Made by a program: the position numbers and the translations under genes. Under the pieces are notes generated by a model. The model was not told where the DNA came from. It saw only the letters and a list, made by a program, of their open reading frames with translations, and did not search any database. Below, one piece after another: positions 2,679-45,162 of a stretch of DNA of 45,917 bases (position 1 is its first letter; the number at the start of each line of letters is the position of its first letter). This stretch comes from Escherichia phage 2725-N35. The stretch lies in the sequence record MN840485.1; one strand, 5' to 3'.

Positions 2679-2722
2679 ATAATACCATCAAATCAGGATG
2701 ACTTTTAACAAAAAATGCTATT
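2679..2722 (-). promoter_or_regulatory. P-box promoter-like element upstream of the helicase operon
   Basis: Minus-strand reading: AATAGCATTTTTTGTTAAAAG, ~21 nt, TATTAT; then ~45 nt leader to the helicase ATG. Confidence 0.5.
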
Positions 2723-2733
2723 GAGGTAATGAA

Positions 2734-3213
2734 ATGAATACAGTCGACAAGCGAACAATTAACGGCAATAACGGAACCATCCGCACCGAAGACAAAAAGC
2801 AACGTAAACGACCTTCAGGCTACTATGTTTTAAAAGATGAAGTAAGAGCCGGGCTACGCGCGCGGCTAGAGATAGTTCTTGATTTCTTCGGCACAAAGGC
2901 GAATATCGCAAAGCAGTTAAAGGTAACACCACAGGCTGTAGAAGAATGGTTTAAGCGCGGTATGATTTCTGCGCGTGGGGCTCAACTTTCTCACAACTAC
3001 TATAAGCGAAATGGAGAAGGTTTTCGCGCTACATTCTGCCGACCAGACCTGCAATTCGACGGCAACGGGAGACCGCTGACACTTCGGTGCAAAAAGCGCC
3101 ATATGCTGCGAGTCGTCACTGAGGCTGAATTAGCCACTAAGCCAGAGTGTCGTTCATGGCGCAAGATAAAATTAGAGAACCAAAAGAAGAAAGAGCAAAA
3201 CAGCACGATTTGA
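2734..3213 (+). CDS. DNA-binding protein with Cro/YdaS-like helix-turn-helix; putative transcriptional regulator
   Basis: 159 aa; 'TKANIAKQLKVTPQAVEEWFKRGMIS' HTH; SD GAGGT upstream of ATG. Confidence 0.55.
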   Translation: MNTVDKRTINGNNGTIRTEDKKQRKRPSGYYVLKDEVRAGLRARLEIVLDFFGTKANIAKQLKVTPQAVEEWFKRGMISARGAQLSHNYYKRNGEGFRATFCRPDLQFDGNGRPLTLRCKKRHMLRVVTEAELATKPECRSWRKIKLENQKKKEQNSTI

Positions 3214-3268
3214 TAAACAATGGCACTTTGCATTATGTATAGTGCCTTTATTGTTTATGGAGGTAATT

Positions 3269-4195
3269 ATGAGTCACAATGATAAGAACGAAGTGATAGC
3301 CAAGATGAAAGGGATGTGGAGTGAGTTCTACTCATCGCATCTTGGATGGACAAAGGAGAATCTCAGCAAGAAACATGGTCCGTGCCCTTACTGCTTTGGC
3401 AAGGATAGGTTTCGCTTCACTGATGAGTTAGGTCAAGAAAAGGGAAATGGCGCAGCAATATGCAACCAGTGTGGAAATGATTCTGGTGTTGGTTGGGTAA
3501 TGAAGTGTTCTGGAATGAGTTATAGTGAAACAATAGATACGCTTGGTGATTGGCTGAATCTCGTTCCAGTAGAGGTTATATCAAAAGCAAACAAAAGAGC
3601 TTCAAGAACATCACCATACAAAATGGGCGCTCAGATTGATCACGAAAGATGCTTAGAGATAATGGAAAGGACGGAAAGAGTAGAATCAACTCCTCTCAGT
3701 ACATACGAGGGTATCTATAGCGAGTTCGGTTTTGATGTTGGCAGGACGAAATCAGGTGAATTAATCCACGCAGTTCCGTGCTTTATGGCTTATAGCGACG
3801 GTATATCAGAAGAAATGTGTAATGTAATGTTTATCAATGAAGAGGGAGATGTTAGTTATGCTGCAAAAGATTATACTCGCCAGTCTATTTCTGTTATTGG
3901 TTCCCTTAAGGATGATGAGTACGCTTATCTGGTCGATAATCTCATTGACGGCTATCATGTTCACATTGCTACTGGCAACCGCTGCGTGCTTGTTTGCCAC
4001 TCCAGTTACAACATGGAAATGGTTGCTTACGCGCTTAGAAACTACAAGTTACGCATCGCTTGTACTCGCAGCGATTTTGATTTACTCGCCGTTGCTGACG
4101 ATCGCAATCTTGATGTTGTAATGCCAAATAATGATAACCACTTCAAATCAGGAATAAGAAAGCGAATATACAAGGCGAGCGAATTACTAGACTAA
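3269..4195 (+). CDS. DNA primase (zinc-finger type), putative
   Basis: 'CPYCFGKDRF...CNQCGN' zinc-binding motif; sits next to the helicase; start moved to the ATG preceded by GGAGG (track ORF begins at GTG 3242). Confidence 0.55.
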   Translation: MSHNDKNEVIAKMKGMWSEFYSSHLGWTKENLSKKHGPCPYCFGKDRFRFTDELGQEKGNGAAICNQCGNDSGVGWVMKCSGMSYSETIDTLGDWLNLVPVEVISKANKRASRTSPYKMGAQIDHERCLEIMERTERVESTPLSTYEGIYSEFGFDVGRTKSGELIHAVPCFMAYSDGISEEMCNVMFINEEGDVSYAAKDYTRQSISVIGSLKDDEYAYLVDNLIDGYHVHIATGNRCVLVCHSSYNMEMVAYALRNYKLRIACTRSDFDLLAVADDRNLDVVMPNNDNHFKSGIRKRIYKASELLD

Positions 4196-4216
4196 CCTCC
4201 TTCGGGAGGTTTTTTT
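4196..4216 (+). terminator. Rho-independent terminator after primase
   Basis: CCTCC-ttcg-GGAGG hairpin followed by T7. Confidence 0.8.
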
Positions 4217-4221
4217 ATGAC

Positions 4222-4258
4222 TCAAAGATGCTACAATCCACTTTAGCAATTCGTGCTA
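4222..4258 (+). promoter_or_regulatory. Extended -10 promoter (TGcTACAAT) followed by an inverted copy of the P-box upstream motif; candidate operator
   Basis: gaTGCTACAATccacTTTAGCAATTCGTGCTATTTT immediately upstream of the tail fibre gene. Confidence 0.45.
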
Positions 4259-4282
4259 TTTTACAAATGGAGACTCTACACA

Positions 4283-7323: not shown

Positions 7324-7974
7324 CTAGAATGTGTCGATTTGTTGTGATTCTACTTCATTCTTTTCTTTATCACTACTTTTTTCTGCAACTTTCTTAGGCG
7401 TTGCTGGGTTAAAGCCAGTCATTGCATTAGCTTCGATTTCTGCTTTTCGCTCGATAATGTGAGGTTCAAAAACCTTCCATCCTGCCGCATCAAGTGATTG
7501 TTTGGCCTCTTTCCATACATTACGAAGCTCATCAAGAGTGTTGCATTTCTCGAGTTCTCGCTTGAAATCCTTAACACCCTTAGCGGCGAGATTGCCATCA
7601 TCATCTGCCTGGCTGAGACCTAAAGCTGCCGTTATTCCGTAACGTCGAGCATATGTTAATGCTGAGCCGTAACCTTGAGCATCATTCTTGCTGATTGGTA
7701 CAATCATTAAGAAGCTAACCCACTCTCCAGATTCTGCGTGAAATAGCTTTGTCTCAACCTTTAGTAGTCCATTTGCTTCGCTATCAATTACGCTCTGAAA
7801 CATCACAAGACCACATTCTTCAAGGCCAGGCTCTACAGCGGCAAGAACATCATCAAGAGTACTATATCTGTTCTTGAGGTGAGAGTTCTGCTTCGACTTT
7901 TCAGCCTTCGCAAATAGCGATTTAGCGGTGTGCAGCGCGTTTAAAATTGATTTGCATGATTCTGAAATTTGCAT
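7324..7974 (-). CDS. erf: Erf-family single-strand annealing recombinase
   Basis: 'GSALTYARRYGITAALGL...DDDGN' matches the P22 Erf signature 'SSYARKY..NGLFGIDD'. Confidence 0.8.
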   Translation of the reverse strand: MQISESCKSILNALHTAKSLFAKAEKSKQNSHLKNRYSTLDDVLAAVEPGLEECGLVMFQSVIDSEANGLLKVETKLFHAESGEWVSFLMIVPISKNDAQGYGSALTYARRYGITAALGLSQADDDGNLAAKGVKDFKRELEKCNTLDELRNVWKEAKQSLDAAGWKVFEPHIIERKAEIEANAMTGFNPATPKKVAEKSSDKEKNEVESQQIDTF

Positions 7975-8003
7975 CTTTAACCTCGTTCGTTGTTGATGGG
8001 ATA

Positions 8004-8050
8004 ATCATACCCCGCATTTTAATTTTGTCTTTAGCAATTCGTGCTGTTTA
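8004..8050 (-). promoter_or_regulatory. P-box promoter upstream of the erf-ssb operon
   Basis: AACAGCACGAATTGCTAAAG, 22 nt, TATGAT; 29-nt leader to erf ATG. Confidence 0.6.
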
Positions 8051-9775: not shown

Positions 9776-9867
9776 GTAACTAATGCGTAAATTAGCGTAA
9801 CAGAGCGTATATCATTTTCCGCGGATGAGATTGTATACATCGAGTTACATCGGTTACGTGTATGCAA

Positions 9868-9935
9868 TAGCACGAATAGCTAAAGACATTCCGCACTGAC
9901 GGTTGTATTATTACTACATCGAAACGAAACAACTT
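9868..9935 (+). promoter_or_regulatory. P-box promoter for the lipoprotein/receptor-binding protein operon
   Basis: AATAGCACGAATAGCTAAAG, 23 nt, TATTAT, TACTACATCGAAACGAAAC leader. Confidence 0.55.
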
Positions 9936-9950: not shown

Positions 9951-10196
9951 ATGACTAACTTCATCAAATCAGCAATCATAGCGGCGGCAGTAATCATGAC
10001 GGTAGGTTGTTCTTCTGGTCCTCGACCTGATGGGTGGTGTGCAACACAAGCAAACGGCGTGTGCGTAGCTAAGTGGAAAGGCGGTGTAGTTGTTCCGGCT
10101 GGTGATGTTGATATTCGCTACGCTGGCATTGAAAGCAAATCTGGCGGCGGTTACGGCGGTTCTGTTGCAGATCACGGCAGTAAGGAGTGGAAATAA
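9951..10196 (+). CDS. Small lipoprotein; candidate superinfection-exclusion factor
   Basis: Signal peptide with lipobox (...IMTVGC SSG); SD AAGGA; track ORF trimmed to this ATG. Confidence 0.6.
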
Positions 10197-11158
10197 TGCC
10201 GCAGGGTATATTGATTGACCTCAATGACGGAAGACCAGCGATGGAAATCACGGCAGGATTAAGGGCACCTGCTGTGACTGGATCAATAAATACCAATGGA
10301 CTTTCAACCCCAGCAATCTCGTGGGATTTTGGATTGACAATGTCTCCTGGCTCTACGGCTTTCTGCCTACCAACGAAGGCAGTCCACGTTGACGCTTACG
10401 ATGTTATACCCGAAGTTTATTACATGAACGGGTTTCAAAAGGTAAATGACGGAACTGGCAGGATAACTCTCAGCAACTTCAATGGTGCTAATGGTCGAAT
10501 AATTGACTTTGCTGGTAATTGCTTTGAGATACTACCGGCTTCACCCTCATCAAGTCCTGGAATACTTGTTGAGAACTCAACTGATTTCCTTGCTATATCA
10601 AGCAACTCGCGTCTAATGTCTGCGGCCTGGGTTGGTGGCATACAGGTTAACGGTGCAGCATCGCTACCAGTTAGCGGAATACCATTCGGCAAGTGGGATA
10701 ATCCAAACGTATCACTTGAATCAGATGGATCAACAATATGGTGTAGGGATATAACCTACGGAGGTACAGATGATGTTGCGGCAAGTACCCATGTTCAGCT
10801 GGTGATATTCAGGAATGAACCACCACCAGCAGGGCCCGGGCTCACAATGTCAAATAGTTCTGGTCAGATTGTTTTTTCAAGTGTTCGCCGCCCATTCGTT
10901 CTTGGTGGATTTATACAAATAAGCAATGGATATCAGTCAATAAATGGTGGTTTCTTCCCGCTGCTTAGGTGCGGCGCTACGACTAGAGTTACCGGAGGGT
11001 ATAACAACTTACGATACAAGGGTGTTTGCATGTCTGGAGGCTCCGTTAGGGCTGTTCCTGGATCTGTAATAGGTAACTACTCAACTCAGACAGGCGCTCA
11101 GTTTCCTTTCGACACGAACATATCAATGGCACTTCCATTTATCCCAAACTTCTACTAA
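10196..11158 (+). CDS. Putative receptor-binding or distal tail protein
   Basis: 321 aa; ATG overlaps the lipoprotein stop (TAATG); convergent on the J-like gene. Function inferred from context only. Confidence 0.4.
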   Translation: MPQGILIDLNDGRPAMEITAGLRAPAVTGSINTNGLSTPAISWDFGLTMSPGSTAFCLPTKAVHVDAYDVIPEVYYMNGFQKVNDGTGRITLSNFNGANGRIIDFAGNCFEILPASPSSSPGILVENSTDFLAISSNSRLMSAAWVGGIQVNGAASLPVSGIPFGKWDNPNVSLESDGSTIWCRDITYGGTDDVAASTHVQLVIFRNEPPPAGPGLTMSNSSGQIVFSSVRRPFVLGGFIQISNGYQSINGGFFPLLRCGATTRVTGGYNNLRYKGVCMSGGSVRAVPGSVIGNYSTQTGAQFPFDTNISMALPFIPNFY

Positions 11159-14100: not shown

Positions 14101-14615
14101 TATTCCTGATATGCTCCACCATTAACAGACAGGTCAATTGCGTACTCACAAGTTGTTCCGTTCAGGTCTCCATTGCTTTCTTGCTTAACCAGTCTAGGCC
14201 AATATAGCTTTACACGAATCGCTGATAGCTGAGTATTGTTAACCGCAATGATGTACGGGGTATCGTTCTTGATTTCTCTGGATGCCTGAATCTCTGAGTT
14301 AGCACCGTCAAGCCCGGCGATATAATCCTGATACTGCGTGCCGGCACGGAACTCAGCGCGAACACCTTCGTAGTTGTAGCTACCATCCTGGTTTTGCACC
14401 GGAACGTCGGCAAGGTATAAATCTTTCATTGAGAAATTGGGGTCAACCTCACCATCAGCAACCGCCAAAAGAACCTTAACCTTGTTTAGTGAAATGAGGT
14501 TATCTTCCTGCTCCACTGGTTGATGCTGCTTCTGGCTACCACCTTTAGCACCATAAATCTTAATATCTTCAGCCATATCACAAAGCCTCATGTTTGTTTT
14601 GATCATTTGTGCCAT
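11190..14615 (-). CDS. Tail tip/central fibre protein, lambda gpJ-like (host specificity protein)
   Basis: 1141 aa; conserved gpJ region 'YPLTALVYVEFGSD...IQVPTNYDTETRTYSGTWNGLFK..AWSNNPAWVLYDL'. Confidence 0.9.
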   Translation of the reverse strand: MAQMIKTNMRLCDMAEDIKIYGAKGGSQKQHQPVEQEDNLISLNKVKVLLAVADGEVDPNFSMKDLYLADVPVQNQDGSYNYEGVRAEFRAGTQYQDYIAGLDGANSEIQASREIKNDTPYIIAVNNTQLSAIRVKLYWPRLVKQESNGDLNGTTCEYAIDLSVNGGAYQEYTRGVANGKTTTGYDRSIRVNLPAEFDSALVRIRKITPDSTSSTLVNGMQITTYQEVIDAKFRYPLTALVYVEFGSDLFPNGIPTISIKKRWKLIQVPTNYDTETRTYSGTWNGLFKMAWSNNPAWVLYDLVTNRRYGLDQRELGVEIDKWGLYEAAQFCDQMVPDGKGGLEPRYLCDMVVQNKVEAYTLIRDICSIFRGLTFYDGEKIGIVVDKPRNPSYIFTNDNVVNGLFSRTFASDKSLYTTANVQFDDVENNYQQDVEPVFELEATRRFGFNPVDLTAIGCTRRSEANRRGRWLLKTNLRSETISFTTGLEGMIPMIGEVIAVNDAAWSSNYQLNLSGRIESVQGLQVFTPFKVDAAPGDRILLNKPDGSPEARTIASVSEDGRTINLNTAFSFLAQPDTVFAIDKDNLALQQYVVTGIQKADSDGSDSFQYTITAVEYDPNKYDEIDYGVNIVDRPTSIVEPDRLSPPENLTVSSYSKVVQGLSVETMVIGWDKAPYAKTYNVQWRKENGNWINVPRTASTEVDIEGIYAGIYDVRVRSVSDTENVSAWSGIVTVSLTGKIGRPSAPTVITASTDEVFGIRVKWGFPEGSGDTAYTELQQVPDNGDGTYNPDNASLLTLLPYPAYEYWHTPIQPGKVIWYRARLIDRIGNTSDWSAFARGMSTDDANIINDYIKVDIEGSDGFKYLEQNAIQKNQDIQNQAESILENSLANDADVRRMTKENGKRKAEYVQAVNLIADETQARVEALTQLKAQIDDEVVGQITTIETALATETEARATADTALSARVGNNEAALNQKLDAFSNATSTGVQYGISLGLKYNGQTYSSGMSMELVGTGGNVRSQFIFDANRFAISNGIGSGSGQWQLPFVVENGNVIIQSAVIGDGSITNAKIGNIISSNDYVAGSQGWAILKSGASEFNNTTVRGNLYANNGNFAFNGTNNTVQINNNGITVNLPNGGRVVVGVW

Positions 14616-21091: not shown

Positions 21092-21109
21092 TTCTTTAAT
21101 CTCTCATTT

Positions 21110-28966: not shown

Positions 28967-28989
28967 TTGCCTTTTCTCCTCTTGTTTGT

Positions 28990-29045
28990 GTGAAGTAACT
29001 ATACGCCATCCGTGGCTCTAGCGTTTAGCAATTCGTGCTATTTAA
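28990..29045 (-). promoter_or_regulatory. P-box promoter for the 28592..28966 moron
   Basis: AAATAGCACGAATTGCTAAAC, 22 nt, TATAGTTACTTCACACAAAC; the TerL stop codon (TAG) lies within the motif. Confidence 0.6.
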
Positions 29046-30609: not shown

Positions 30610-31114
30610 CTTTCCTCCCATGGTTTTTATGATACCCAAGAATAAATTCAGCCCTCGCCCTGACAATCGACGCGTCGTGAATATTATCAAAGAATCCCAA
30701 GTGAATATTCTCTCCGTCCTTTTTTATTTGAGCCGCATACTTACCAGTCCTGGATACTATGCAGACTCCGGTAACCCCGGTCTTATTCCTCGAATTTATT
30801 GATTGATTCTTTCTATTTTCCTGAATTGTAACTAACCTAAGGTTTTCTATCCTGTTATCATTTCTAACATGATTTATATGGTCAATTTGCATACCTTCTG
30901 GTATTGCTCCGTTATGCATTTCCCAGATTATTCTATGAACCCAATATTTTTTACCCGGCATGTTTACCCTAACATACCCTAGGCTTTTATCAATGCCGCC
31001 AACCTCTTTCCCTATGAATCTTCGCTGTATCCTTCTCCTTCCAAGCTTCTCGCTATCGTAATCTTTCCAGTAAATCTTCCCATCTTTGTATTCAAAATAA
31101 TCATGCCAATTCAT
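30602..31114 (-). CDS. HNH endonuclease (homing-endonuclease-like)
   Basis: 'IDHINHVRNDNRIENLRLVTIQENRKNQ' HNH motif; inserted between terS and terL. Confidence 0.8.
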   Translation of the reverse strand: MNWHDYFEYKDGKIYWKDYDSEKLGRRRIQRRFIGKEVGGIDKSLGYVRVNMPGKKYWVHRIIWEMHNGAIPEGMQIDHINHVRNDNRIENLRLVTIQENRKNQSINSRNKTGVTGVCIVSRTGKYAAQIKKDGENIHLGFFDNIHDASIVRARAEFILGYHKNHGRKDE

Positions 31115-31182
31115 ATCGCCACCTCGTTAGTTTGTTGGGCCCATTATCTCATTGATTGGGCCTCTTCTTTTAACAATAATTG

Positions 31183-31689
31183 CTATAACTTACTAATAAC
31201 AGACTCCAGCGCTTCCTTCATGCTATCAACGTCGTTAGCTGTGGAGTTGTTGCTAATGGTAATCTCCTGCGGCTTATCAATCCCTAGCTCTTTACCAACG
31301 ATTGTGGAGTTGATGATGCCTGCAACGCCAAGCTGATACTTCTGCTCGTAAATTACGTTATCAATAAATTCCATCACATCAGAGTATCCAGCCTCTGTAC
31401 GCCAGCGTGCGAATCTATTGATGTTAACACCCATGAAGAGCGCCAGACCTGTTAATGTGAATACTCGAGGCTTGTGCACTAAACTCTCGCTAACCACGCC
31501 CTGGAATGCCGCCGTCTCAATGGCTTTGATTGCCTCATTCTCAGCCCATGAAAAGTATCTCACTGCAAAGTCAAATACCTCCTCTGGAGTGCACTTGCGG
31601 TTGATTGCCACCATAGCAATATCGCCATACTTCTTGTTATAAAGCGCCTTGAAATTTCCATCACCCATCTTTAATGCTGCTTTGCTCAT
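31183..31689 (-). CDS. Terminase small subunit, putative
   Basis: 168 aa directly upstream of HNH/TerL; first gene after a strong promoter. Confidence 0.6.
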   Translation of the reverse strand: MSKAALKMGDGNFKALYNKKYGDIAMVAINRKCTPEEVFDFAVRYFSWAENEAIKAIETAAFQGVVSESLVHKPRVFTLTGLALFMGVNINRFARWRTEAGYSDVMEFIDNVIYEQKYQLGVAGIINSTIVGKELGIDKPQEITISNNSTANDVDSMKEALESVISKL

Positions 31690-31999: not shown

Positions 32000-32077
32000 T
32001 GGCGCTCCGCACTGGATTCGAACCAGTAACCTACGACTTAGAAGGTCGTTGCTTCTGTCCTGTTGAGCTAGCAGAGC
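32000..32077 (-). tRNA. tRNA-Arg(UCU): tRNA-Arg (anticodon UCU) with encoded CCA
   Basis: Minus-strand GCTCTGC...ACGAC-CTTCTAA-GTCGT...ACTGG-TTCGAAT-CCAGT-GCGGAGC-G-CCA: 7-bp acceptor, 5-bp anticodon stem with UCU, canonical T-arm. D-arm is irregular. Confidence 0.75.
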
Positions 32078-32838: not shown

Positions 32839-32854
32839 AATCTCTCGTTGTGTT

Positions 32855-32915
32855 GATAAGGTAATTATATGCCATCCGTGGCACCTGCGTTTAGCAATTA
32901 GTGCTATTTATAGAA
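32855..32915 (-). promoter_or_regulatory. P-box promoter
   Basis: AAATAGCACTAATTGCTAAAC, 22 nt, TATAATTACCTTATCAACAC. Confidence 0.6.
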
Positions 32916-33235: not shown

Positions 33236-33418
33236 TTAAATTCGGTTCAATTGCTCTAGAATTTCGTAAGCCAGCTCTCGAGCCTGCTCTTCGGTTAAGT
33301 GGATTGTGTGAACCTGTGGCTCTTTACGCATTCCGCAAGCCTGGGCAATGATGAATGTGGCATATCCGTCGAAGTGATTAGCTTGTAGCTTAGGCTCTGA
33401 TTGGTGAAACTTGGTCAT
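33236..33418 (-). CDS. Hypothetical small protein
   Basis: 60 aa, first ORF after a P-box promoter. Confidence 0.5.
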   Translation of the reverse strand: MTKFHQSEPKLQANHFDGYATFIIAQACGMRKEPQVHTIHLTEEQARELAYEILEQLNRI

Positions 33419-33429: not shown

Positions 33430-33495
33430 CTCATTGTTTCGATGGGGTAACTATAACAAATTACCCCAATTCTGCTTTAGTAATTCGTGCTACTT
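33430..33495 (-). promoter_or_regulatory. P-box promoter
   Basis: AGTAGCACGAATTACTAAAG, 22 nt, TATAGTTACCCCATCGAAACAATGAGAG. Confidence 0.6.
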
Positions 33496-33636
33496 GTATT
33501 CTTGAGTTACTTCACAGTACTTAATTGTTCCACCAAGAACCGCCTGCTGCTTGAGTGCATCAATCAGTGATTCATAAACCCGAACATGCTTAACGCTGTT
33601 AAACTTTCCAGTGTAGTAAGTGTGGACGTAAATCAT
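33490..33636 (-). CDS. Hypothetical small protein (~48 aa)
   Basis: [15 protein letters not shown]...; ATGA overlap with the upstream gene; stop TAG lies in the P-box. Confidence 0.35.
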   Translation of the reverse strand: MIYVHTYYTGKFNSVKHVRVYESLIDALKQQAVLGGTIKYCEVTQEYK

Positions 33637-33857
33637 TTCTTTGTCGCCTTATCCCAGTCAGCCAGGTATGCAGCATTGACGCTAAGCGCCTCGTACTGAC
33701 GTGATGACTCGAAGTCACTGACGTCGAACTGCTGGTTGTTGATTTGCTTGACAATCTCTTTAGCAACACGCATTTGCTCAAATGGGCTGGAGTTACTGAA
33801 TTGAGCTATGCTCTTAAGGATTGTGGCATCTTTATCTGACAGGTTAATCGTAATCAT
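33633..33857 (-). CDS. Hypothetical protein
   Basis: 74 aa ORF. Confidence 0.5.
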
Positions 33858-33964
33858 TTTCCAAATACTCCCTTAGTCTTCAGATTGTGGCGATAGAACT
33901 GCATGATGTGACCATTGTGGTGATTGCTTGATGGATATTGCTTCATCTCTATTTCCTCTCGTTT

Positions 33965-34025
33965 GGTGTGAACTAACTATAACAAAACCAGCCGGAGCGG
34001 GTTTAGCAATTCGTGCTATTTGCCA
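33965..34025 (-). promoter_or_regulatory. P-box promoter
   Basis: AAATAGCACGAATTGCTAAAC, 22 nt, TATAGTTAGTTCACACCAAACGAGAGG. Confidence 0.6.
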
Positions 34026-34409: not shown

Positions 34410-34475
34410 TCATGTGGTTGATGCTGGGGATTATACCAGTCAGTATGAATCCCCTTTTATCAATTCGTGCGATCT
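34410..34475 (-). promoter_or_regulatory. P-box promoter (variant upstream box) with perfect TATAAT
   Basis: GATCGCACGAATTGATAAAAG, 22 nt, TATAAT; long (~130 nt) leader. Confidence 0.55.
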
Positions 34476-34923: not shown

Positions 34924-34944
34924 CTTCATTTCCTCTTTGTTGTC

Positions 34945-35005
34945 GATGTGGTAATCATATCCGATTACCCGATACATTGTTTAGCAATTCGTGCTATTTA
35001 GCACT
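34945..35005 (-). promoter_or_regulatory. P-box promoter
   Basis: AAATAGCACGAATTGCTAAAC, 22 nt, TATGATTACCACATCGACAACAAAGAGG. Confidence 0.6.
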
Positions 35006-35296: not shown

Positions 35297-35324
35297 TTCA
35301 CTGTTCCACATTGCTGTTGGTGTG

Positions 35325-35375
35325 GTAATTATGCCATCCATGACATTACCGCGTTAGGCAAAAAGTGCTATTCAC
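35325..35375 (-). promoter_or_regulatory. P-box promoter (AAAAG-type upstream box)
   Basis: GAATAGCACTTTTTGCCTAAC, 22 nt, CATAATTACCACACCAACAG. Confidence 0.55.
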
Positions 35376-35478: not shown

Positions 35479-36027
35479 CTACTTAGTCTCCTTAATCATT
35501 TCCTGATAAGCATTAATCATTGTAACAGCGCCCTTAAGTTCTTCACCTTCCAAGCCAGCAACACTTGGTGACAGCTTGAGCAGTCTAGACTTGAACTTTT
35601 CAATGATAGCCGCCTCTTTCTCCGCTTCCTGCTTTTTCTTTTCGCGACTCCCAGTCCAGTGCGCGCCGTTCTCAATGTATATGACCAGGTATTTATCAGC
35701 GCCATCACCGTCGAAGCTACCGGGCCTTGTTTGCTCTCCGTCATCATCAATCCAGATGAACTTATATCTCGCTCGCTTATTAGCATCGCGAAGCTCTGTC
35801 ATTCTCGACACTGTGTTATAGATGTATGAGTTCTTTAGTTCCGGCATCGCCCTATCTGCCAGGTTGAGGATCTCACTAGTCTCTTCGTCATACACCATTT
35901 CAGGGTATTCCTTGCCTCGAACCAGTTTGAATATCTGGCTAACCGGAACTTTAAACTCACCACTCTCGGACACCATCGCGTTGCGCACCATCTCACGGAT
36001 AACTTCACCTAGTGTTACTTTCTGCAT
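35479..36027 (-). CDS. Hypothetical early protein
   Basis: 182 aa; first gene leftward of divergent region B. Confidence 0.5.
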   Translation of the reverse strand: MQKVTLGEVIREMVRNAMVSESGEFKVPVSQIFKLVRGKEYPEMVYDEETSEILNLADRAMPELKNSYIYNTVSRMTELRDANKRARYKFIWIDDDGEQTRPGSFDGDGADKYLVIYIENGAHWTGSREKKKQEAEKEAAIIEKFKSRLLKLSPSVAGLEGEELKGAVTMINAYQEMIKETK

Positions 36028-36039
36028 GTTGATACCTCG

Positions 36040-36110
36040 TTTGTTTTACTTCGTTTCAGTGACTGCTATATTGCCATCTATTTACGTGTCGGTCAATGTA
36101 TATTTTCGTC
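36040..36110 (-). promoter_or_regulatory. Promoter for the 36027-leftward operon (TTGACC -35-like, TATAGC -10-like)
   Basis: Minus reading: ATACATTGACCgacacgtaaatagatggcaaTATAGCagtcactGAAACGAAG; resembles P-box downstream half. Confidence 0.4.
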
Positions 36111-36305
36111 TATTTTATCATGGATACGCTTTTTGCCTCCAGAGGCCCCTCCATTGCTGGTTGTAAATGTGCCGTATCCGATGTGTACAGATTTTTGAAG
36201 CCATTCCCTATATATGTGCCTTTTATTCCTACAATGCCATCCATTTCTGACAGGTGTCAGAATATCTGCGCGGAACATATCAATAATCTCACCAATTACC
36301 GGTAT

Positions 36306-36372
36306 ACACAGTATACATATATATAATAATAATAATAATAATAAAGTAAAAGGTTGATATATATAGATATTA
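36306..36372. repeat. AT-rich element with (TAA)n microsatellite, copy 2
   Basis: acacagtatacatatatataataataataataataaagtaaaaggttgatatatatagatatt; matches copy 1 at ~9712..9775. Confidence 0.8.
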
Positions 36373-36479
36373 TATTGTATATCGTGTGTATATATCGCGT
36401 AAAAACGTAGGTTAGTGGTCACTAACTTTTGTGACGACACTGAGTATACGGAGGATACGCGTATATCCGTGAGGCTCCC

Positions 36480-36660
36480 ATAGATTGGTAAAAATCAACT
36501 TGTATGGTAGTCAATCCATCTTTCATTCACTCACTCACCACTTCATTTCACTTTTCGCAACAATCAAAAACATCATTGCATCTGAAGCAATATTGCTATA
36601 TGCGCAATAATCATGTGAATCATTGCAATATCTGCAACAATCCATAAATCTGACGAATGG
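36480..36660. repeat. Cluster of short direct/inverted repeats (iteron-like) in divergent region B
   Basis: Repeated GCAACAATC, CATTGCA(A)T, palindrome GCAATATTGC, and tcattcac/tcatttcac direct repeats. Confidence 0.5.
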
Positions 36661-36715
36661 CACTTTTTGCTAAAGACATGCGGGGATGGCGAGGATATAG
36701 TTAACTCATCAAAAC
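36660..36715 (+). promoter_or_regulatory. P-box promoter for the rightward small-gene operon
   Basis: AATGGCACTTTTTGCTAAAG, 23 nt, TATAGTTAACTCATCAAAACGAGG. Confidence 0.6.
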
Positions 36716-36727
36716 GAGGGGATAGAA

Positions 36728-36955
36728 ATGAAAGTAAAGGTTATTGATCTTGATTTCTGTGGTGATATTTATGATGACGAGTATGAGTACTATGGCATCA
36801 ATAAAGGCGGTGTGTATGAAGTGGTAACTACTTATCCTGACCTTGAGGCAATTGTAGTGGTTAACAAGTATTGCCGTAATGTTATGCTCTACAATAATGA
36901 GGTTGAGATCTATGAAGAAAAAATAAAGATGAATTACGTAATGAGTGCGCACTGA
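36728..36955 (+). CDS. Small protein, paralog family member 1
   Basis: MKVKVIDLDF...YYGINKGGVYEV; shares MKIK..FD...YYG(I/V).(N/D)G.VY(E/D)V pattern with two downstream ORFs. Confidence 0.55.
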   Translation: MKVKVIDLDFCGDIYDDEYEYYGINKGGVYEVVTTYPDLEAIVVVNKYCRNVMLYNNEVEIYEEKIKMNYVMSAH

Positions 36956-37704: not shown

Positions 37705-37866
37705 TGCTATTACCATCTGAGATAAATTATTTCGATCTTGAGGTCGTAAGTGCCTATAGCGGAAAGGGCTGGCCTTGTGGAGATTGGTTCCGAGAGGACT
37801 TGCTAGAGAGTCACGAGATTATGCTTAAGGCGATAGAAAAAGCACGAAATAGCACGAATTGCTAAA
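37705..37866 (+). CDS. Hypothetical small protein (~53 aa)
   Basis: ORF MLLPSEINYFDLEV...; stop codon is the TAA of the next P-box (TTGCTAA); coordinates approximate. Confidence 0.35.
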
Positions 37867-37905
37867 TCCATACGTGGCTTTTCCTGTATATTAACCTCAT
37901 CGAAA
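37850..37905 (+). promoter_or_regulatory. P-box promoter
   Basis: AAATAGCACGAATTGCTAAAT, 22 nt, TATATTAACCTCATCGAAACGGGAG. Confidence 0.6.
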
Positions 37906-37918
37906 CGGGAGATGTAAA

Positions 37919-38098
37919 ATGAAAGTTTACTTACTTAATGCTTATACTGACTATGACGGTTTTGAAATTTGTGGTGTTTTTGATACAGAGGAGCTAGCTG
38001 AATTACAAAAGAATATACTAATAGGCATCGATATAGAACGTGGTTATGGTCCTGATTATTATCTCATTGAAGAATTTGACGTTAAGGTAGCGATTTAA
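37919..38098 (+). CDS. Hypothetical small protein (59 aa)
   Basis: ORF MKVYLLNAYTDYDGFEICG...; SD GGGAG; TAATG overlap with the next gene. Confidence 0.45.
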   Translation: MKVYLLNAYTDYDGFEICGVFDTEELAELQKNILIGIDIERGYGPDYYLIEEFDVKVAI

Positions 38099-38262: not shown

Positions 38263-38648
38263 CTAGTACACCTACTAAAAACTTCATTAGCAAAGAAAAC
38301 GTATTATACAAGGCTCGCGTTAAAAAGGTTCACCAATGGGTTAATGGTGTCCCTGAGGAGGTTGAGTTTGAGCAAATTAAGAAGAATGGCAAATGGATTA
38401 ACCTGGAAGAACGTGGAAAGTATATCAAGACCAAAACTATTTACTGCACAAAGGTTAACCAAAAGTCAGAACTTAAAAAATACTTTAAAGAAGGGAAACG
38501 CTATCAGGTGGCACTTCATGCTGGTCTTGGTCAGTCTGCCGGTTATATTTACGATGAAGATGGTAATGCCTGGCAGCTTTACCGCAGCGAGGACGTTGGT
38601 TTTTACACTCTTTGCCAGACTTACTTATTTGAAGCTCAATACATGTAA
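38259..38648 (+). CDS. Hypothetical protein
   Basis: Track ORF 38235..38648 trimmed to the ATG coupled to the upstream stop. Confidence 0.45.
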   Translation: MTSTPTKNFISKENVLYKARVKKVHQWVNGVPEEVEFEQIKKNGKWINLEERGKYIKTKTIYCTKVNQKSELKKYFKEGKRYQVALHAGLGQSAGYIYDEDGNAWQLYRSEDVGFYTLCQTYLFEAQYM

Positions 38649-38700
38649 ATAGCACAAATTGATAATGCTTTATAAGAGGTCGTTGATATAATGGCCTCTC
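38645..38700 (+). promoter_or_regulatory. P-box promoter (variant upstream box) with perfect TATAAT
   Basis: AAATAGCACAAATTGATAATG, 22 nt, TATAAT. Confidence 0.55.
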
Positions 38701-38722
38701 AAAAACAATACGGAGATAAGTA

Positions 38723-40306
38723 ATGTTTGATTTCAACGAAGATAAACTATCTGTTGAGCAGGTTATGGCAATTGCTGCTGCGGACAATCTTCCACCTCTG
38801 CGCGTCGCTATTAATGCTAATGGCTATCGCCAGTCTCAATCATTCTGGAAAGCGCCAGTCGAGATTGATGCAGCTAATGACAAGTATCCCGTAATCTCAC
38901 TCGGTAATGACATTGATGTTGTTGGGAAGCTGTCATCTAACATCGCTCGCTCAGTTCAGTTTCCTGAGTCTTCAGCATACATGCACTTCCTTGGGTGTAT
39001 TTCAGCCGCCATGCTTGGTCGATTCACTGTTGAGTACCACGGAACTCAGCAGCCAACATCTCTTTACGTAGTAACCAGTCAGCCACCATCCACAGGTAAA
39101 TCAGCAATTAACTCGCTTTCTATTGCGCCAATGATTGCTGAGACTGAGCGGCTTAATGAAGTGCGAAAGCGTGAGCGTAAAAAGATTATGGCAAAGCTGT
39201 CTGCATTATCCAAAGAGATGAAGCAGGAAAAGTCACCATCAGAGATGGCGTCTCTCTTTGAGGAGAAAGAGGATTTAGAGGAGAAGCTGGAAAAGATGTG
39301 CGATATCGTATTTCCAGTGTCAGATACCACTCCGGAAGGTCTTGCACGAATAAACAACCGCCAGGGTAACTTTGCTGTAATCTCGGATGAAGCAACTAGC
39401 GTCAACTCACTTCTTGGCATGACCTATGGTGACGGCTCTAAGAAAACGAACAGCGAGCTCGTACTCAAGGCGTGGGATGCTGGTAACGTGTCCATTGCGC
39501 GTGCGAACGCAGAAAACAACATGAGCTTCGTTGCTATGGGATGCATCTCTGTAATTGCGCAAGATGAGACAATAAACGCAATCATGAATGCTGGTGCTCG
39601 TGGTATTGGTGTGTCGGAACGTTTTCTACTTGTGCGTGAAAAATCATTCCTTGGCGAGCGTGTATTCGTCGATGAGAATGGAGACTCAACGTATGAGCCA
39701 ATTGATGGTAGCCTGAAGGCTGACTACTTCCGCCTGGTTCACGAAATCATGAGTGAGCAAGATGTTAAGTTGACGGTAAGCAACTCAGCGATGAAATATC
39801 TCAACCGAGCACGTCAGGAAATGGAGCCGCACCTTGCAGACGGCGGTAAGTATTCACACACAATGTTGCGCGGTGCTCTTGGTAAGTTCGATAAGCAGGC
39901 TATCAAGATTGCAGCGGTTCTTCACACGGTGCGTAACTGGTTCAACCCTAGCGGTGGGAGTCCACAGAAATCAAGAGAGATTGAGCTTGATACCATGCAA
40001 GAAGCCGTCATTATGTTTCAGGAACTTAGCAAGACTTATCTTTCATCCGCTAACGCCGCTGGTCACGCTGGCGACAATGCTGAGATGAACAAGTTGATTG
40101 ATATACTAATCAAGCAAGGCAAAAACGGAAAGGGCGTAGTTGGTATTCGCTCGTTGTATGAAGCTGCTCGCAAGGTTAAGCCATTCGAAGCTCAGGCTGG
40201 AGTGATGACGAAGATTAAAGATCACTTGCTGCCAATGCTTGATGAGAAAAACTACACGTGCCTGATTGGTGATAAGGTTTACATTAATCCGCGATTGCTG
40301 GGGTGA
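38723..40306 (+). CDS. P-loop NTPase of unknown function (Walker A/B)
   Basis: 527 aa; Walker A 'SQPPSTGKS', Walker B-like 'FAVISDEA'; a coiled-coil-like insert lies between them. Confidence 0.6.
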   Translation: MFDFNEDKLSVEQVMAIAAADNLPPLRVAINANGYRQSQSFWKAPVEIDAANDKYPVISLGNDIDVVGKLSSNIARSVQFPESSAYMHFLGCISAAMLGRFTVEYHGTQQPTSLYVVTSQPPSTGKSAINSLSIAPMIAETERLNEVRKRERKKIMAKLSALSKEMKQEKSPSEMASLFEEKEDLEEKLEKMCDIVFPVSDTTPEGLARINNRQGNFAVISDEATSVNSLLGMTYGDGSKKTNSELVLKAWDAGNVSIARANAENNMSFVAMGCISVIAQDETINAIMNAGARGIGVSERFLLVREKSFLGERVFVDENGDSTYEPIDGSLKADYFRLVHEIMSEQDVKLTVSNSAMKYLNRARQEMEPHLADGGKYSHTMLRGALGKFDKQAIKIAAVLHTVRNWFNPSGGSPQKSREIELDTMQEAVIMFQELSKTYLSSANAAGHAGDNAEMNKLIDILIKQGKNGKGVVGIRSLYEAARKVKPFEAQAGVMTKIKDHLLPMLDEKNYTCLIGDKVYINPRLLG

Positions 40307-41944: not shown

Positions 41945-42120
41945 CTAGTCTGCGATAATAAATTCAACCAGCGAACCATCAATCGGCGCTAAAATCCACG
42001 TCATATCGTCACCGTAAATCTTGTAATATCCATCCCCTTGATACTCTGCATTGTACGGCTGGTTAACTGTAAATGGCAGCGTTTTGGAGTTGTTTTTGGT
42101 GCAATAAATCATTTTAGTCA
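41945..42120 (-). CDS. Hypothetical small protein (~55-58 aa) upstream of the holin
   Basis: ORF MTKMIYCTKNN... following the P-box promoter; coordinates approximate. Confidence 0.3.
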
Positions 42121-42154
42121 TTTTGTGTTTCCTTGTTTAGTTCATCTCGTTTCT

Positions 42155-42215
42155 ATGTGGTAATTATGCCGCATTTCTACGGCATGCGTTAGGCAAAAAG
42201 TGCTATTAACTAAAC
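42155..42215 (-). promoter_or_regulatory. P-box promoter for the lysis cassette
   Basis: TAATAGCACTTTTTGCCTAAC, 22 nt, CATAATTACCACATAGAAACGAG. Confidence 0.55.
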
Positions 42216-43336
42216 ATTTCCGGGCGGCAAGTAAATCGTCCAATCTCACCAAACTCAGGACTATAAATTATCACCGAAGCCTGTCGGTAAGAGCGATAAC
42301 CTCCGTTAGCACTGTACGCATCTTTCGCTCCAAGCTGGCCGTGTGATTCATCAATACCCAGATTTCCTTCCGTAATAGTTTGATGGTGATAGTGGCCTGA
42401 ATGGGTGTAAACATACTCTGATTCACCAAATGCTTTGCGATGGTCACGAGCCAGTGCTGATAGTCGGGTATCAGGCTTTTTGAGTTCGTGCCCATGGCAG
42501 TAACCAAGCAGTGTCTTCCCAAATTGCGTTACGTGAAGCGCAGCGGGGGACGTATCAACATTAACTCGAGGCTCATCCATATAGAAAGCTGCCATTGCAG
42601 CACGAAGCCAAATCATACCTGAGAGATCGTGGTTACCTGGAATAATCTGAACCTCAACCTCGGCGTGCTTATCAAGCATACGGCTAATTGCTCGACGTGT
42701 CGATCGCACTGCTACGTAAACAAGTTTGTGATAACGGCTATCTTGATCAAGAACATGACGACTGGTTGGTGTTACCGCTTCCATTCCGTCAGAGTGAAGG
42801 AAGTCACCCCCAATCAGCAATACAGCTTTCTTGGAGTTGGGGGCCTTTGCAACCGCGTAATCAAAGTAATCATTAAGAACTCTCTCAGCGATTTCAGTAC
42901 TATAGTTCTCACCACACTCAGCATGATGAGCCATTGCTCCAATGTGGAGGTCGAACACGGGGTAAAGGCTTAAAGTATCTTCCCATAAACCAACCCTTAA
43001 AGCTTTAGCTTTCTCACGCGGCAACTCATCAGTTAGGGCCTGAATTGCCTGAAGCATCATCTCTTCTTGCTTCTCCTTGTCGATATCTGATTTAACCCAC
43101 TGTTGCTTAATCTCGCCATCAGCACCAATTAAGCTGGATACGCCTTTAACTGCATAGCCCTGAGGGATTAAGTTGCTTACATCGCGACCATGCCCTTCGC
43201 CTTGTTTAGCTAATTTACTGCGACGCAATTCAACGTTGCGAATGTTCATTCCGTACTTCTCTGCGATTGCCTTGTTGGTCATGCCATTTGCTAACTCTTC
43301 GCGCAATTGTTCGTTGGTGATTTTTGCGGTTGCCAT
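42206..43336 (-). CDS. HTH domain fused to a calcineurin-like metallophosphoesterase
   Basis: N-terminal 'LANGMTNKAIAEKYGMNIRNVELRRSKL' (LuxR/sigma-r4-like HTH); phosphoesterase motifs DLH, GGDFLH, GNHD, HGH, HSGHYHH. Confidence 0.7.
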   Translation of the reverse strand: MATAKITNEQLREELANGMTNKAIAEKYGMNIRNVELRRSKLAKQGEGHGRDVSNLIPQGYAVKGVSSLIGADGEIKQQWVKSDIDKEKQEEMMLQAIQALTDELPREKAKALRVGLWEDTLSLYPVFDLHIGAMAHHAECGENYSTEIAERVLNDYFDYAVAKAPNSKKAVLLIGGDFLHSDGMEAVTPTSRHVLDQDSRYHKLVYVAVRSTRRAISRMLDKHAEVEVQIIPGNHDLSGMIWLRAAMAAFYMDEPRVNVDTSPAALHVTQFGKTLLGYCHGHELKKPDTRLSALARDHRKAFGESEYVYTHSGHYHHQTITEGNLGIDESHGQLGAKDAYSANGGYRSYRQASVIIYSPEFGEIGRFTCRPEMFS

Positions 43337-43419
43337 TATAGAAGTTCCTTAATTCATTACGATAAAGTATAAGATGGTAAAGCTAAACAGTGGTAACGAT
43401 GCTACTAGTATTAGGCTCG

Positions 43420-43671: not shown

Positions 43672-43673
43672 AC

Positions 43674-43922
43674 TTAATCCTTAGGCTTCGTTATCTTAAA
43701 CTTGAATCCCTCAGATTTAAGGAATTCATTAACATCAATCCTGATACCTGGCTTAACTCTTACGTATTTTCTTGGTCGCTCATCCATGTATGAGAATTTA
43801 CCATTAAAGACAACACTGATATCTTTTATTTCAAAGAAGCGGGATATCTGCTTAATGTCATCTTGCAATCCAGCCTCTCCACAATGCGCCCATACTGCTG
43901 CTCGCCCAGTTTCAACTATCAT
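43674..43922 (-). CDS. Hypothetical protein
   Basis: 82 aa ORF. Confidence 0.45.
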   Translation of the reverse strand: MIVETGRAAVWAHCGEAGLQDDIKQISRFFEIKDISVVFNGKFSYMDERPRKYVRVKPGIRIDVNEFLKSEGFKFKITKPKD

Positions 43923-44044
43923 AAGCCGTAGGCCATTTTCATGTATTCTTTAGCGCACATCCAGCAATAATCAGAGCCAGTTTTTACAGCATCATTTGCG
44001 TATATCTGTGCGATCTCAAACATCTCTCTGTCTACAATTTTCAT
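43919..44044 (-). CDS. Hypothetical small protein (41 aa)
   Basis: ORF MKIVDREMFEIAQ...; ATGA-coupled to the downstream gene. Confidence 0.3.
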   Translation of the reverse strand: MKIVDREMFEIAQIYANDAVKTGSDYCWMCAKEYMKMAYGL

Positions 44045-44115
44045 CTCTTAATCCTATGTGTTGTTGATGTGCTTAATATAATCCATACGTGGATTTGAGT
44101 TTTAACAAAAAGTGC
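44045..44115 (-). promoter_or_regulatory. P-box promoter (AAAAG-type)
   Basis: GAATAGCACTTTTTGTTAAAAC, 22 nt, TATATTAAGCACATCAACAACAC. Confidence 0.55.
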
Positions 44116-44309
44116 TATTCAACTAAGAAGCTAACTTCTTTTCCATTCGAATCTCTACACCCGTAATACCCGTCACCTTGATAACTAACGAACCAATAGC
44201 ATCCATTATCGCTCAATACTGTTATTGCGCCATCTGAATTAAAGATAATTTCGTAATCTTCAAGTAGAGTAAAGAAACCATTTGCTTTTACACAAGTTGC
44301 ATTAATCAT
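44115..44309 (-). CDS. Hypothetical small protein
   Basis: 64 aa ORF. Confidence 0.45.
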   Translation of the reverse strand: MINATCVKANGFFTLLEDYEIIFNSDGAITVLSDNGCYWFVSYQGDGYYGCRDSNGKEVSFLVE

Positions 44310-44506
44310 CTCACAATCTCCACATCTAATTTTGAAACACTAACAACAATACCCGCATCGTTTTTAACGATGTATCTATCTGAGTCTGCGGAAATTTCAA
44401 GAACAAAATAGCTATTCCCGCGCTTTAGAAGGTACTCATCAATATCCATCCGTGGGGTGTTGTTTCTTGGCTTAAACGTAACAACGAACGGTCTATTATT
44501 AATCAT
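44306..44506 (-). CDS. Hypothetical small protein
   Basis: Start trimmed to the ATG overlapping the upstream stop. Confidence 0.45.
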   Translation of the reverse strand: MINNRPFVVTFKPRNNTPRMDIDEYLLKRGNSYFVLEISADSDRYIVKNDAGIVVSVSKLDVEIVR

Positions 44507-44724
44507 AAGAAATCCTCCGGGCAATCTTTCTTCATTTCTTCGATATCAGCAACCATACGGTCGCGCCACGTTTCGATATCAGTGTTCAGGTAATCTTCTT
44601 CAAAGCTATAGTCCAATGACTCAGCAAGATCGTATGAGTTTGGTTGATATCCTGCTTTATTTAACTCCTGCATTGCCATTAATTTAAATACTTCCCATTG
44701 ATTATCAAATGTAAAAATTGCCAT
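44503..44724 (-). CDS. Hypothetical acidic small protein
   Basis: 73 aa ORF. Confidence 0.45.
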   Translation of the reverse strand: MAIFTFDNQWEVFKLMAMQELNKAGYQPNSYDLAESLDYSFEEDYLNTDIETWRDRMVADIEEMKKDCPEDFL

Positions 44725-44882
44725 TATTCCGATACCTCCAATCCATCAACCAGCTTAATTGGAACAACAACCTCACACCCACCATCAATTACGAAAACAA
44801 ACTTATCAATGTATTGTGAGAATGTATTGAAGAAGAACGTTGAATCCTCCCCAGTTTTCCAGTTTACAATTGCCTCTCTCAT
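44724..44882 (-). CDS. Hypothetical small protein (52 aa)
   Basis: ORF MREAIVNWKTGED...; ATGA-coupled to the upstream gene. Confidence 0.3.
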   Translation of the reverse strand: MREAIVNWKTGEDSTFFFNTFSQYIDKFVFVIDGGCEVVVPIKLVDGLEVSE

Positions 44883-45079
44883 TCTGATACCTCATCAAAT
44901 TTTTCGCCAAATTCGTTTTTAACAGTTTCTAAATCATCTTTGTAGCTAGGGCTAACTTCGAAAGAGTAATCTCCATCCATTACATCAATGAGGATGTAAC
45001 CATCTTCTGTGATGACCAACTCATATTCGTAACCAGTTTTGCGTGATTCGTAGAATTTTCCAGTGTAGATAGTAGCCAT
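44879..45079 (-). CDS. Hypothetical small protein
   Basis: Start set at ATG (MATIYTGKFY...) 30 nt downstream of the P-box -10; track ORF extends to 45127. Confidence 0.45.
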   Translation of the reverse strand: MATIYTGKFYESRKTGYEYELVITEDGYILIDVMDGDYSFEVSPSYKDDLETVKNEFGEKFDEVSE

Positions 45080-45116
45080 TTTATTTCTCTCTTTGTGTTT
45101 CGTTTCGATGGAGTAA

Positions 45117-45162
45117 CTATACCCCATCTTTTAAAATCGCCTTTAGCAATTCGTGCTATTTT
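45117..45162 (-). promoter_or_regulatory. P-box promoter (archetype; duplicated at ~182..228)
   Basis: AAAATAGCACGAATTGCTAAAGG, 22 nt, TATAGTTACTCCATCGAAACGAAAC; VRR-NUC stop TAG lies inside the box. Confidence 0.6.

Follow-up and report, generated by a model that had tools for sequence, protein, structure and literature searches.

Promoter-like repeats of a T1-like Escherichia phage resemble host class II marbox promoters

A repeated composite element in Drexlerviridae

The genome of Escherichia phage 2725-N35 (MN840485.1; 45,917 nucleotides (nt), the whole of which we call the window) carries a repeated composite element, in which a conserved box is followed by a -10-like hexamer and a leader, and which we consider here as a putative promoter. 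The phage is a T1-like siphophage (Drexlerviridae), with Veterinaerplatzvirus T145P1 as its nearest relative and ~87% identity to the group of DTL and vB_EcoS-12210I. Composites stand in front of a helicase and VRR-NUC gene pair, primase, erf, a lipoprotein/DUF6453 pair, an HNH endonuclease, two genes inserted in the structural region, ~10 small early clusters, a second helicase, the lysis cassette and an exonuclease operon (Table 1). These downstream genes agree with the operons named in the original prediction, which had described about 20 near-identical promoter-like sites. The packaging operon is preceded by a terminator and then, as that prediction also held, an extended -10, TGgTATAAT, at 31722-31714 (-).

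We searched the whole window for the box AATAGCACNNNTTGCTAAA, allowing up to three mismatches, and took the expectation from 100 shuffles. There were 21 matches against 0.71 expected, a number attained by none of the shuffles (0/100). Written as AATAGCACnnnTTGCTAAA, the box has 21 copies in the window; because window positions 1-983 repeat 44935-45917, the copies at 208 and 45142 are a single locus, and the unique copies therefore number 20. A weight matrix built from six other genomes only (named below) gave the same 21 sites at 18-33 bits, with the runner-up window position at 9.9 bits and a maximum of 12.9 bits in shuffled sequence. The family of ~20 elements thus stands as proposed, with the copy at 208 added from beyond the region that the proposal covered. 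The terminal overlap is ~983 base pairs (bp) long, which implies a unit length of ~44.9 kb, and its two copies differ by two 2-nt insertions or deletions (indels) and zero substitutions. The indel near 116 falls inside a small open reading frame (ORF) downstream of the element at 208 and is either an assembly artefact or real heterogeneity.

A -10-like hexamer (TATAGT, TATAAT, TATGAT, TATTAT, TATATT, CATAAT or GATAAT) lies 19-21 nt past the 18-mer box in 19 of the 20 unique copies and exactly 20 nt past it in 16, which is equivalent to the fixed 22-nt distance from TTGCTA that had been noticed before. In the window composites a C-A dinucleotide, the predicted start site, comes 6-7 nt after the hexamer and is followed by an A/C-rich leader. 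All window copies are oriented toward the downstream gene, with leaders of 19-40 nt (a single one was called as 66 nt) and about 70-91 nt from the start of the box to the start codon. The previously described inverted repeat TAGCA-N5-TGCTA (5 bp) is present in the box consensus.

The 2024 reannotation of phage TLS reported a 21-nt direct repeat, aaATAGCACnnnTTGnTAAAA, at 21 places along the direction of transcription, ~76 nt ahead of start codons and with A, T and G subtypes of the central triplet; similar repeats were noted for T1, Rtp and Rogue1, only three canonical promoters were found, and a stoperator, an enhancer-binding site or an UP element were offered as options for the role of the repeat (PMC11447400). 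The TLS repeat and the window box are the same element, with the same consensus, ~20 copies and codirectionality with genes. The fixed -10 partner, the marbox identity and embedded hairpins described below, and the occurrence beyond Drexlerviridae are absent from the TLS paper (PMC11447400). The complete composite is also present in T1, TLS, DTL, Klebsiella phage KL, a Salmonella Tlsvirus and IME347. Together with the window these make a set of seven genomes, in which 116 of 134 box matches have a -10-like hexamer at 19-22 nt (97 at exactly 20 nt), against a background rate of 7.4% for such a hexamer at that spacing. The motif scan proposed as a check on the original prediction thereby extends the element to six related genomes. 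Conservation values below refer to 115 nonredundant boxes or elements from the seven genomes.

No -35-like hexamer is found 16-18 nt from the -10; the best match is usually 2-3 out of six (95 of the 116 elements). A G at -14 is present in 78% of elements and a TGn in 41%. Canonical -35/-10 pairs are not enriched in the window (45 vs. 40 expected). As first argued, TTGCTA and the -10 located 22 nt away do not make up a sigma-70 -35/-10 pair. We also ruled out that TTGCTA is the -35 of a -10 hidden in the spacer, there being no -10-like sequence 17 nt downstream. A sigma-54 reading (TGGCAC-N5-TTGC, with GG at -24 and GC at -12) was rejected as well: the box is TAGCAC-N3-TTGC, with A in place of the first G in 108 of 115 copies, a spacing 2 nt short and a sigma-70 -10 following. 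GATC (Dam) sites are not enriched in the spacers. Genome-wide, GATC occurs at 1.3-1.5 per kb in the window and DTL versus 4.8-6.2 per kb in the other T1-like phages compared, and several of the GATC-richer phages carry annotated Dam-type methylase genes.

One perfect box, at 4242-4260 (-), is without a proper -10 hexamer. Facing the primase terminator, it precedes the tail-fibre ATG (4284) by 24 nt and occupies about +1 to +18 of a putative extended -10 promoter, TGCTACAAT (4228-4236, +). The orphan box is kept across genera at the same place, in DTL (39980), T1 (34902) and IME347 (14233), often as the TTGCTAAG variant, and may be a repressing site or the driver of an antisense start. A role as a class I site for the tail-fibre gene was ruled out by the short distance to the start codon. 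Elsewhere, T1 (25021), TLS (24908) and IME347 (23952) have a box-like ATAGCACAAAAGGTTAAA, with no -10 after it, that overlaps the start of translation of their large J-like tail-tip gene at the start codon itself; its window counterpart, 14598-14615 (-), is degenerate (7.2 bits).

Table 1. Box elements of the window with their downstream genes, sequence features and matrix scores (aa, amino acids; +1, predicted start)
Element and downstream genes	Coordinates	Strand	Box, spacer and -10	Score (bits)	Remarks
Composite	165-226	-	Box 208-226; TATAGT 187-182; +1 at 175 (CATCGAAACGAA)	31.9	Start codon 145
Second sighting of the 165-226 element (terminal overlap)	45099-45160	-			
Composite; ATP-dependent helicase (638-2632) and VRR-NUC (222-641)	2662-2722	-	Box ATAGCATTTTTTGTTAAA; 19 nt; TATTAT 2684-2679	27.8	Overlaps divergent canonical-looking promoter of regulator gene
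Composite; primase (start 3269)	3199-3260	+	Box ACAGCACGATTTGATAAA; 20 nt; TATAGT 3238-3243	22.7	Within 3' end of regulator gene; arms GGCAC/GTGCC around -10
Orphan box	4197-4260	-	Perfect box 4242-4260; no -10 at 19-21 nt	27.7	
Composite; erf (7324-7974) and next 142-aa gene	7987-8048	-	TATGAT 8009-8004; +1 at 7997	28.7	
Composite; lipoprotein (start 9951, PF24052) and DUF6453 (10187-11158)	9866-9928	+	TAGCTAAA variant; 21 nt; TATTAT 9906-9911	26.8	
Composite; 82-aa gene (20843-21091) inserted among tail genes	21108-21169	-		28.1	Terminator immediately upstream of box
Composite; 124-aa gene (28592-28966) between large terminase and portal	28981-29042	-		32.4	
Weaker composite; HNH endonuclease (30602-31114)	31126-31187	-	ATAGCAATTATTGTTAAA; 20 nt; GATAAT after TGA	21.2	Arms GGCCC/GGGCC around -10
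Composite; small early gene (start 32834)	32847-32908	-	TATAAT 32869-32864	32.7	
Composite; 60-aa gene (33236-33418)	33433-33494	-		18.0	Arms GGGGTA/TACCCC around -10
Composite; small early genes (start 33946; DUF7180 33633-33857)	33959-34020	-		33.3	
Composite	34413-34474	-	ATCGCACGAATTGATAAA; TATAAT	20.3	Arms GGGGAT/ATCCCC around -10
Composite; small early gene (start 34923)	34937-34998	-	TATGAT 34959-34954	30.9	
Composite	35311-35372	-	Box variant TTGCCTAA; CATAAT	23.0	Arms GGTAAT/ATTACC around -10
First rightward composite of the divergent early region; 75-aa gene (36728-36955)	36656-36718	+	ATGGCAC variant; 21 nt; TATAGT	26.5	
Composite; 59-aa gene (37919-38098)	37848-37909	+	TATATT 37887-37892	31.0	
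Composite; DNA helicase (38723-40306)	38648-38709	+	Box ATAGCACAAATTGATAAT; TATAAT	19.6	Arms AGAGGTC/GGCCTCT around -10
Composite; lysis cassette (58-aa gene 41945-42121, holin, endolysin, spanin)	42146-42207	-	CATAAT	21.8	Spacer hairpin ATGCCG..CGGCAT abutting CATAAT
Composite; operon ending in DNA repair exonuclease (42206-43336)	44058-44119	-		33.0	

The box as a consensus marbox in class II position

The marbox is bound by MarA, SoxS and Rob, activators of the AraC family that act as monomers (in Klebsiella and Salmonella also by RamA). Its published definition is gcannwwntgnnaaa, and in structural papers it consists of an A site, GCAC, and a B site, CAAA, overlapping the -35. Exact matches to this definition number 17 in the window, against 1.1 expected. 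An older consensus, reportedly AYNGCACNNWNNRYYAAAY, has 18 window sites with up to one mismatch, against 1.2 expected. As in an asymmetric marbox, the phage box has a GCAC A site and a (C/T)AAA B site ~7 bp apart.

Variation among the phage boxes follows the degeneracy of the marbox. Across the 115 boxes G4, C5, A6 and A17 never vary, G13 and A16 hardly do, and A18 is kept as well. T or C is found at position 2, A or T alone at positions 9-10, and C (69 boxes) or T (41) at position 14. The bases specifically contacted in the cryo-electron microscopy structure of Rob, RNA polymerase and micF are -47G, -45A, -38G, -37T and -35/-34 A:T. They correspond to G4, A6, G13, Y14, A16 and A17 of the box, which are conserved in 115, 115, 113, 110, 110 and 115 of the 115 copies, respectively. 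The matrix made from phage boxes also picks out experimentally defined host sites of E. coli K-12, in indirect support of binding by MarA, SoxS or Rob: in the micF region the known site, in forward orientation, was the sole top match (12.1 bits, next -5.2), and so was that of the marRAB promoter (13.6 bits, next -4.5; reverse, as published).

The position of the box is equally that of a host site. In class II MarA-type promoters a forward marbox overlaps the -35 and is centred near -41.5. The distance from marbox to -10 is said to be 18-19 bp. K-12 micF consists of ACAGCACTGAATGTCAAAAC, 18 bp and TAGAAT, and the phage element of a 20-bp box, 18 bp and TATAGT; from the G of GCAC to the hexamer there are 35 bp in both. 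The 19 window composites and the 116 elements of the seven genomes all read toward the -10, as micF does, and in 97 of the 116 the box, the 18 bp and the hexamer follow each other with a spacing identical to micF. The hexamers are those of a sigma-70 -10 (TATAGT, CATAAT, TATTAT, TATAAT and similar), accompanied by a poor -35.

An asymmetric 20-bp site, in forward orientation over the -35, 18 bp from the -10 and with a poor -35, is thus common to the phage element and E. coli micF. At the level of sequence the element has every feature of a class II MarA/SoxS/Rob promoter, and dependence on such an activator is predicted. We estimate the chance that an unrelated site would match the marbox with up to one mismatch, in the right orientation and register, at ~1e-5. 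The arrangement had been called phage-specific, a description that finds no support, as box sequence, orientation and -10 distance are those of host class II promoters such as micF. What differs is usage: host marboxes are degenerate and scattered over a stress regulon, whereas the phage copies are near-perfect consensus sites, 20 per 45-kb genome, and would form the main early and middle promoter type.

We found no literature tying the repeat or Drexlerviridae promoters to the marbox, Rob, MarA or SoxS, although subscription journals may hold an earlier report, and, older subscription papers aside, no mapped start sites for Drexlerviridae. Both the repeat and the promoter class were already known; new are the equation of the two and the spread over three lineages described below.

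Candidate proteins at the box

We consider the elements to be, more likely than not, sigma-70 promoters activated by host Rob, MarA or SoxS through class II marboxes. Each would have a good -10, mostly with a G at -14, and in place of a -35 the 20-bp marbox ATAGCAC-nnW-TTG(C/T)TAAA-nn, which lies forward with its centre ~41 bp ahead of the predicted start. A host activator of the MarA/SoxS/Rob family would bind the box as a monomer, its N-terminal helix-turn-helix reading GCAC and its C-terminal one reading the TG(C/T)TAAA half, and would substitute for the contact between sigma region 4 and the -35. Like the activator of the micF class II complex, it would recruit RNA polymerase by touching both sigma region 4 and the alpha C-terminal domain, and transcription from the conserved C-A ~7 nt past the hexamer would produce a short A/C-rich leader. 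When infection begins, Rob would be the likeliest activator, since cells make it constitutively and in large amounts; in Klebsiella and Salmonella RamA could take this part. Box promoters would drive the early clusters, the replication and recombination genes, the two structural-region insertions and the lysis cassette, and the packaging and structural operon would use its ordinary extended -10 promoter instead. As suggested originally, the box looks like an activator site, one replacing the -35.

A second possibility, which we regard as unlikely, is that an activator encoded by the phage binds the box at ~-41 and replaces the -35, in the manner of Mor and C in Mu, the likeness of the box to a marbox being coincidence or mimicry. 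One candidate would be the Cro-like regulator described next, which would be made first, from a canonical-looking promoter of its own; the other would be some small early protein that has escaped recognition. Gene 2734-3213 (+) encodes the sole recognisable phage regulator. It has homologues in 824 phage records and a strikingly invariant basic N-terminal motif (DKRTxNGNNGTxRxxDxxxRK...EVxAGLxAR), followed by a helix-turn-helix, and a plausible sigma-70 promoter of its own (TTGTCT at 2652-2657, 17 nt, TACAAT at 2675-2680). Because the -10 of this promoter overlaps that of the helicase promoter on the opposite strand (2684-2679), the two divergent promoters should exclude each other; the helicase marbox lies within the regulator leader. 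A dimeric protein would also suit the half-sites of TAGCA-N5-TGCTA, which are one helical turn apart and have roughly equal conservation at most paired positions. The predicted structure of the regulator (predicted local distance difference test (pLDDT) score 87.6) has a core resembling Cro, with a single helix-turn-helix, unlike the bipartite fold of MarA.

The most telling result on the binder comes from phages that carry the composite without this regulator. An IMG/VR pattern scan, in which the matches listed were mostly T1-like contigs, pointed to C130_2 (Hungariovirus, NC_048067), with eight matches at 22-36 bits; Skarpretter (Skarprettervirus, NC_048112) has eight matches too. Both are E. 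coli phages outside Drexlerviridae with P22-like structural genes, and both have 7-8 composites with the same box, 20-21 nt, TATAGT, C-A start and A/C-rich leader. No homologue of the T1-type regulator was found in either by tblastn, nor in C130_2 by a profile hidden Markov model, and their primase adjoins the helicase where the regulator gene would sit.

No phage MarA-like gene was found: Pfam scans of 26 window ORFs gave no AraC-type domain, and tblastn with K-12 MarA gave nothing above noise in a set of phage genomes to which the window, DTL, KL and UTK0007 belong. The proteins common to all box-carrying lineages are replication and recombination enzymes and one 82-aa protein (43674-43922), which in this respect is a candidate. 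It is itself behind a box promoter, and its model (pLDDT 74, moderate) has no meaningful structural match and no resemblance to DNA-binding folds. Every recognisable early-cluster promoter bears the box, so the factor should exist before infection. Conservation within the box is asymmetric, A1, C7, T11, A17 and A18 having no symmetric partners, and position 14 varies where its partner G4 never does. These observations, together with the low chance estimated above for a marbox match in the right orientation and register, make the phage-encoded regulator of the original prediction the less likely binder.

Several points nevertheless weigh against host Rob, MarA or SoxS. A3 and T11 are nearly invariant in the phages, unlike in host sites, and the marbox consensus leaves both free; at position 19 most boxes have A, whereas the older consensus is said to have Y; and, read as a 5-bp palindrome, the box is a fair one, its half-sites being spaced by 10 bp and open to recognition by a dimer. 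Rob has been described as largely sequestered and inactive without inducers (bile salts, dipyridyl). MarA-family proteins have been described as weak activators (~2-4 fold), which is awkward for the main promoters of a fast lytic phage. C130_2, Skarpretter and the T1-like phages have a replication module in common, so an undetected shared small protein is conceivable. Pseudomonas phage Motto (ON843697; 45% G+C, 12 composites), Vibrio phage Vc1 (NC_054898) and Stutzerimonas phage STP9 (OR754315) are close to enteric T1-like or C130_2-like phages; if their host labels are right, a nonenteric counterpart of the activator would be needed, and either the labels are unreliable or another activator serves there. 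Finally, the support is at the level of sequence, with binding, transcription and start sites predicted.

Promoters with a -10, no -35 and dependence on a protein in or near the -35 region are known from phages Mu (Mor/C) and T4 (MotA/AsiA). The box elements are likewise phage promoters, putatively, with a -10 and no -35; in Mu and T4 the activators are phage-encoded, and their boxes have other sequences and positions than ours (for MotA, a centre at -30). Among the 26 window ORFs scanned, Pfam reported none of the families Mor/C, MotA and AsiA.

It is distinctly improbable that no extra protein takes part and that RNA polymerase contacts the box directly, as an UP-like element or through an unusual sigma contact, boosting a -10-only promoter. 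An UP element is an A/T-rich tract from -59 to -38 without conserved G/C. The box has A tracts beside it (aA upstream, AAAA downstream) at the location of the alpha C-terminal domain, and with G at -14 or TGn the cores may have some activity alone. Its invariant or nearly invariant positions, however, are G4, C5, A6, C7 and G13, and it is because these fall on G/C (GCAC, G13) that the UP-like site of the original prediction is unlikely. The box sequence also equals a known protein site, and the strict register (97/116) is more typical of an activator touching sigma region 4. Direct contact had been proposed by the TLS authors (PMC11447400).

The least probable role is a negative or RNA-level one, either as a stoperator-like roadblock, an idea raised by the TLS authors (PMC11447400), or as a UAGCA..UGCUA hairpin used with the second hairpin and the leader for processing or antitermination of read-through transcripts. 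In favour of such a role, the box can pair over 5 bp, most elements have after it a second hairpin that covaries and folds better on the sense strand, and the orphan copy at 4242 overlies a putative tail-fibre promoter. Against it, the variants TGATA, TACTA, CAGCA and TCGCA break the pairing and none is compensated, so that sequence and not structure is conserved, the fixed distance to the -10 and the C-A start are promoter features, and no Rfam family matches. An RNA hairpin formed by the box was ruled out on the same variants. Stoperators of the mycobacteriophage L5 type are asymmetric sites within transcription units at which a phage repressor stops elongation. The one-way orientation of the boxes would fit them; the fixed register to a -10 with a C-A start does not, and these are virulent phages with no recognisable immunity repressor.

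We regard it as an even call whether, in virulent enterobacterial phages of at least three lineages (Drexlerviridae, Hungariovirus and Skarprettervirus), most early and middle transcription has come under the control of host Mar/Sox/Rob through consensus class II marboxes, in promoters that also enclose a hairpin, in many cases the upstream unit's terminator, between activator site and start. Phage development would then be coupled to the stress, bile-salt or antibiotic-exposure state of the host, and replicating phage DNA would titrate activators of efflux-pump expression. Infection efficiency would depend on multidrug-efflux regulators, which bears on phage-antibiotic synergy and on behaviour in the gut. 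T1-like phages are among the commonest coliphages and Klebsiella phages, and their transcription has long been unclear; identifying the repeats as marboxes provides a concrete and simply testable hypothesis. If it is true, promoter prediction would improve for hundreds of deposited genomes, and the elements would be compact, strong, activator-dependent promoter parts.

Spacer hairpins, leaders and other features of the window

The spacer had been described as variable. It is not random and usually holds a hairpin. From the end of the box to +10, the 115 elements have a mean folding energy of -10.1 kcal/mol versus -5.1 kcal/mol for dinucleotide shuffles (mean z -2.4; 62% of elements below -2). 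Folding favours the sense over the antisense strand (-10.1 vs. -8.0 kcal/mol; G-U pairs 126 vs. 70). Hairpins come in two forms. The first is G+C-rich, lies wholly within the 20-nt spacer and abuts the T-rich -10; it is the intrinsic terminator of the upstream unit, and the T1 and Motto records annotate terminators exactly at these hairpins. In the second form the arms stand around the -10, with the hexamer in the loop and no U tract after it. These arms covary across sites and phages (AAGGCC/GGCCTT, GAGGGC/GTCCTC, GGGGTG/CACCCC, AGAGGTC/GGCCTCT).

The conserved leader of the original prediction was upheld in part. Its best-kept portion is the C-A expected at the start site, with C at -1 in 72% and A at +1 in 83% of the 115 elements, followed by T (57%), C (54%), G (46%) and AAA (~70%); beyond this the leader is A/C-rich and G/U-poor up to the ribosome-binding site, and overall it is less conserved than claimed. 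Such moderate conservation, strongest at the C-A, speaks little for the RNA-level signal that had been suggested, and an Rfam scan gave no family for element or leader, with only a tRNA reported.

At 36440-36655, where the early clusters diverge, the sequence is noncoding and A/T-rich; GCAATA/ATTGC motifs recur in it, 28 nt are directly repeated at 36543 and 36620, and 36590-36599 and 36622-36631 form an inverted repeat. The leftward genes at 35479-36440 would have a promoter without a box. The HNH endonuclease gene (PF13392; 30602-31114, -) is an insertion that separates the small terminase gene from the large one; in DTL the two lie side by side. A tRNA-Arg (anticodon TCT) is located among the small early genes at 32000-32077 (-).

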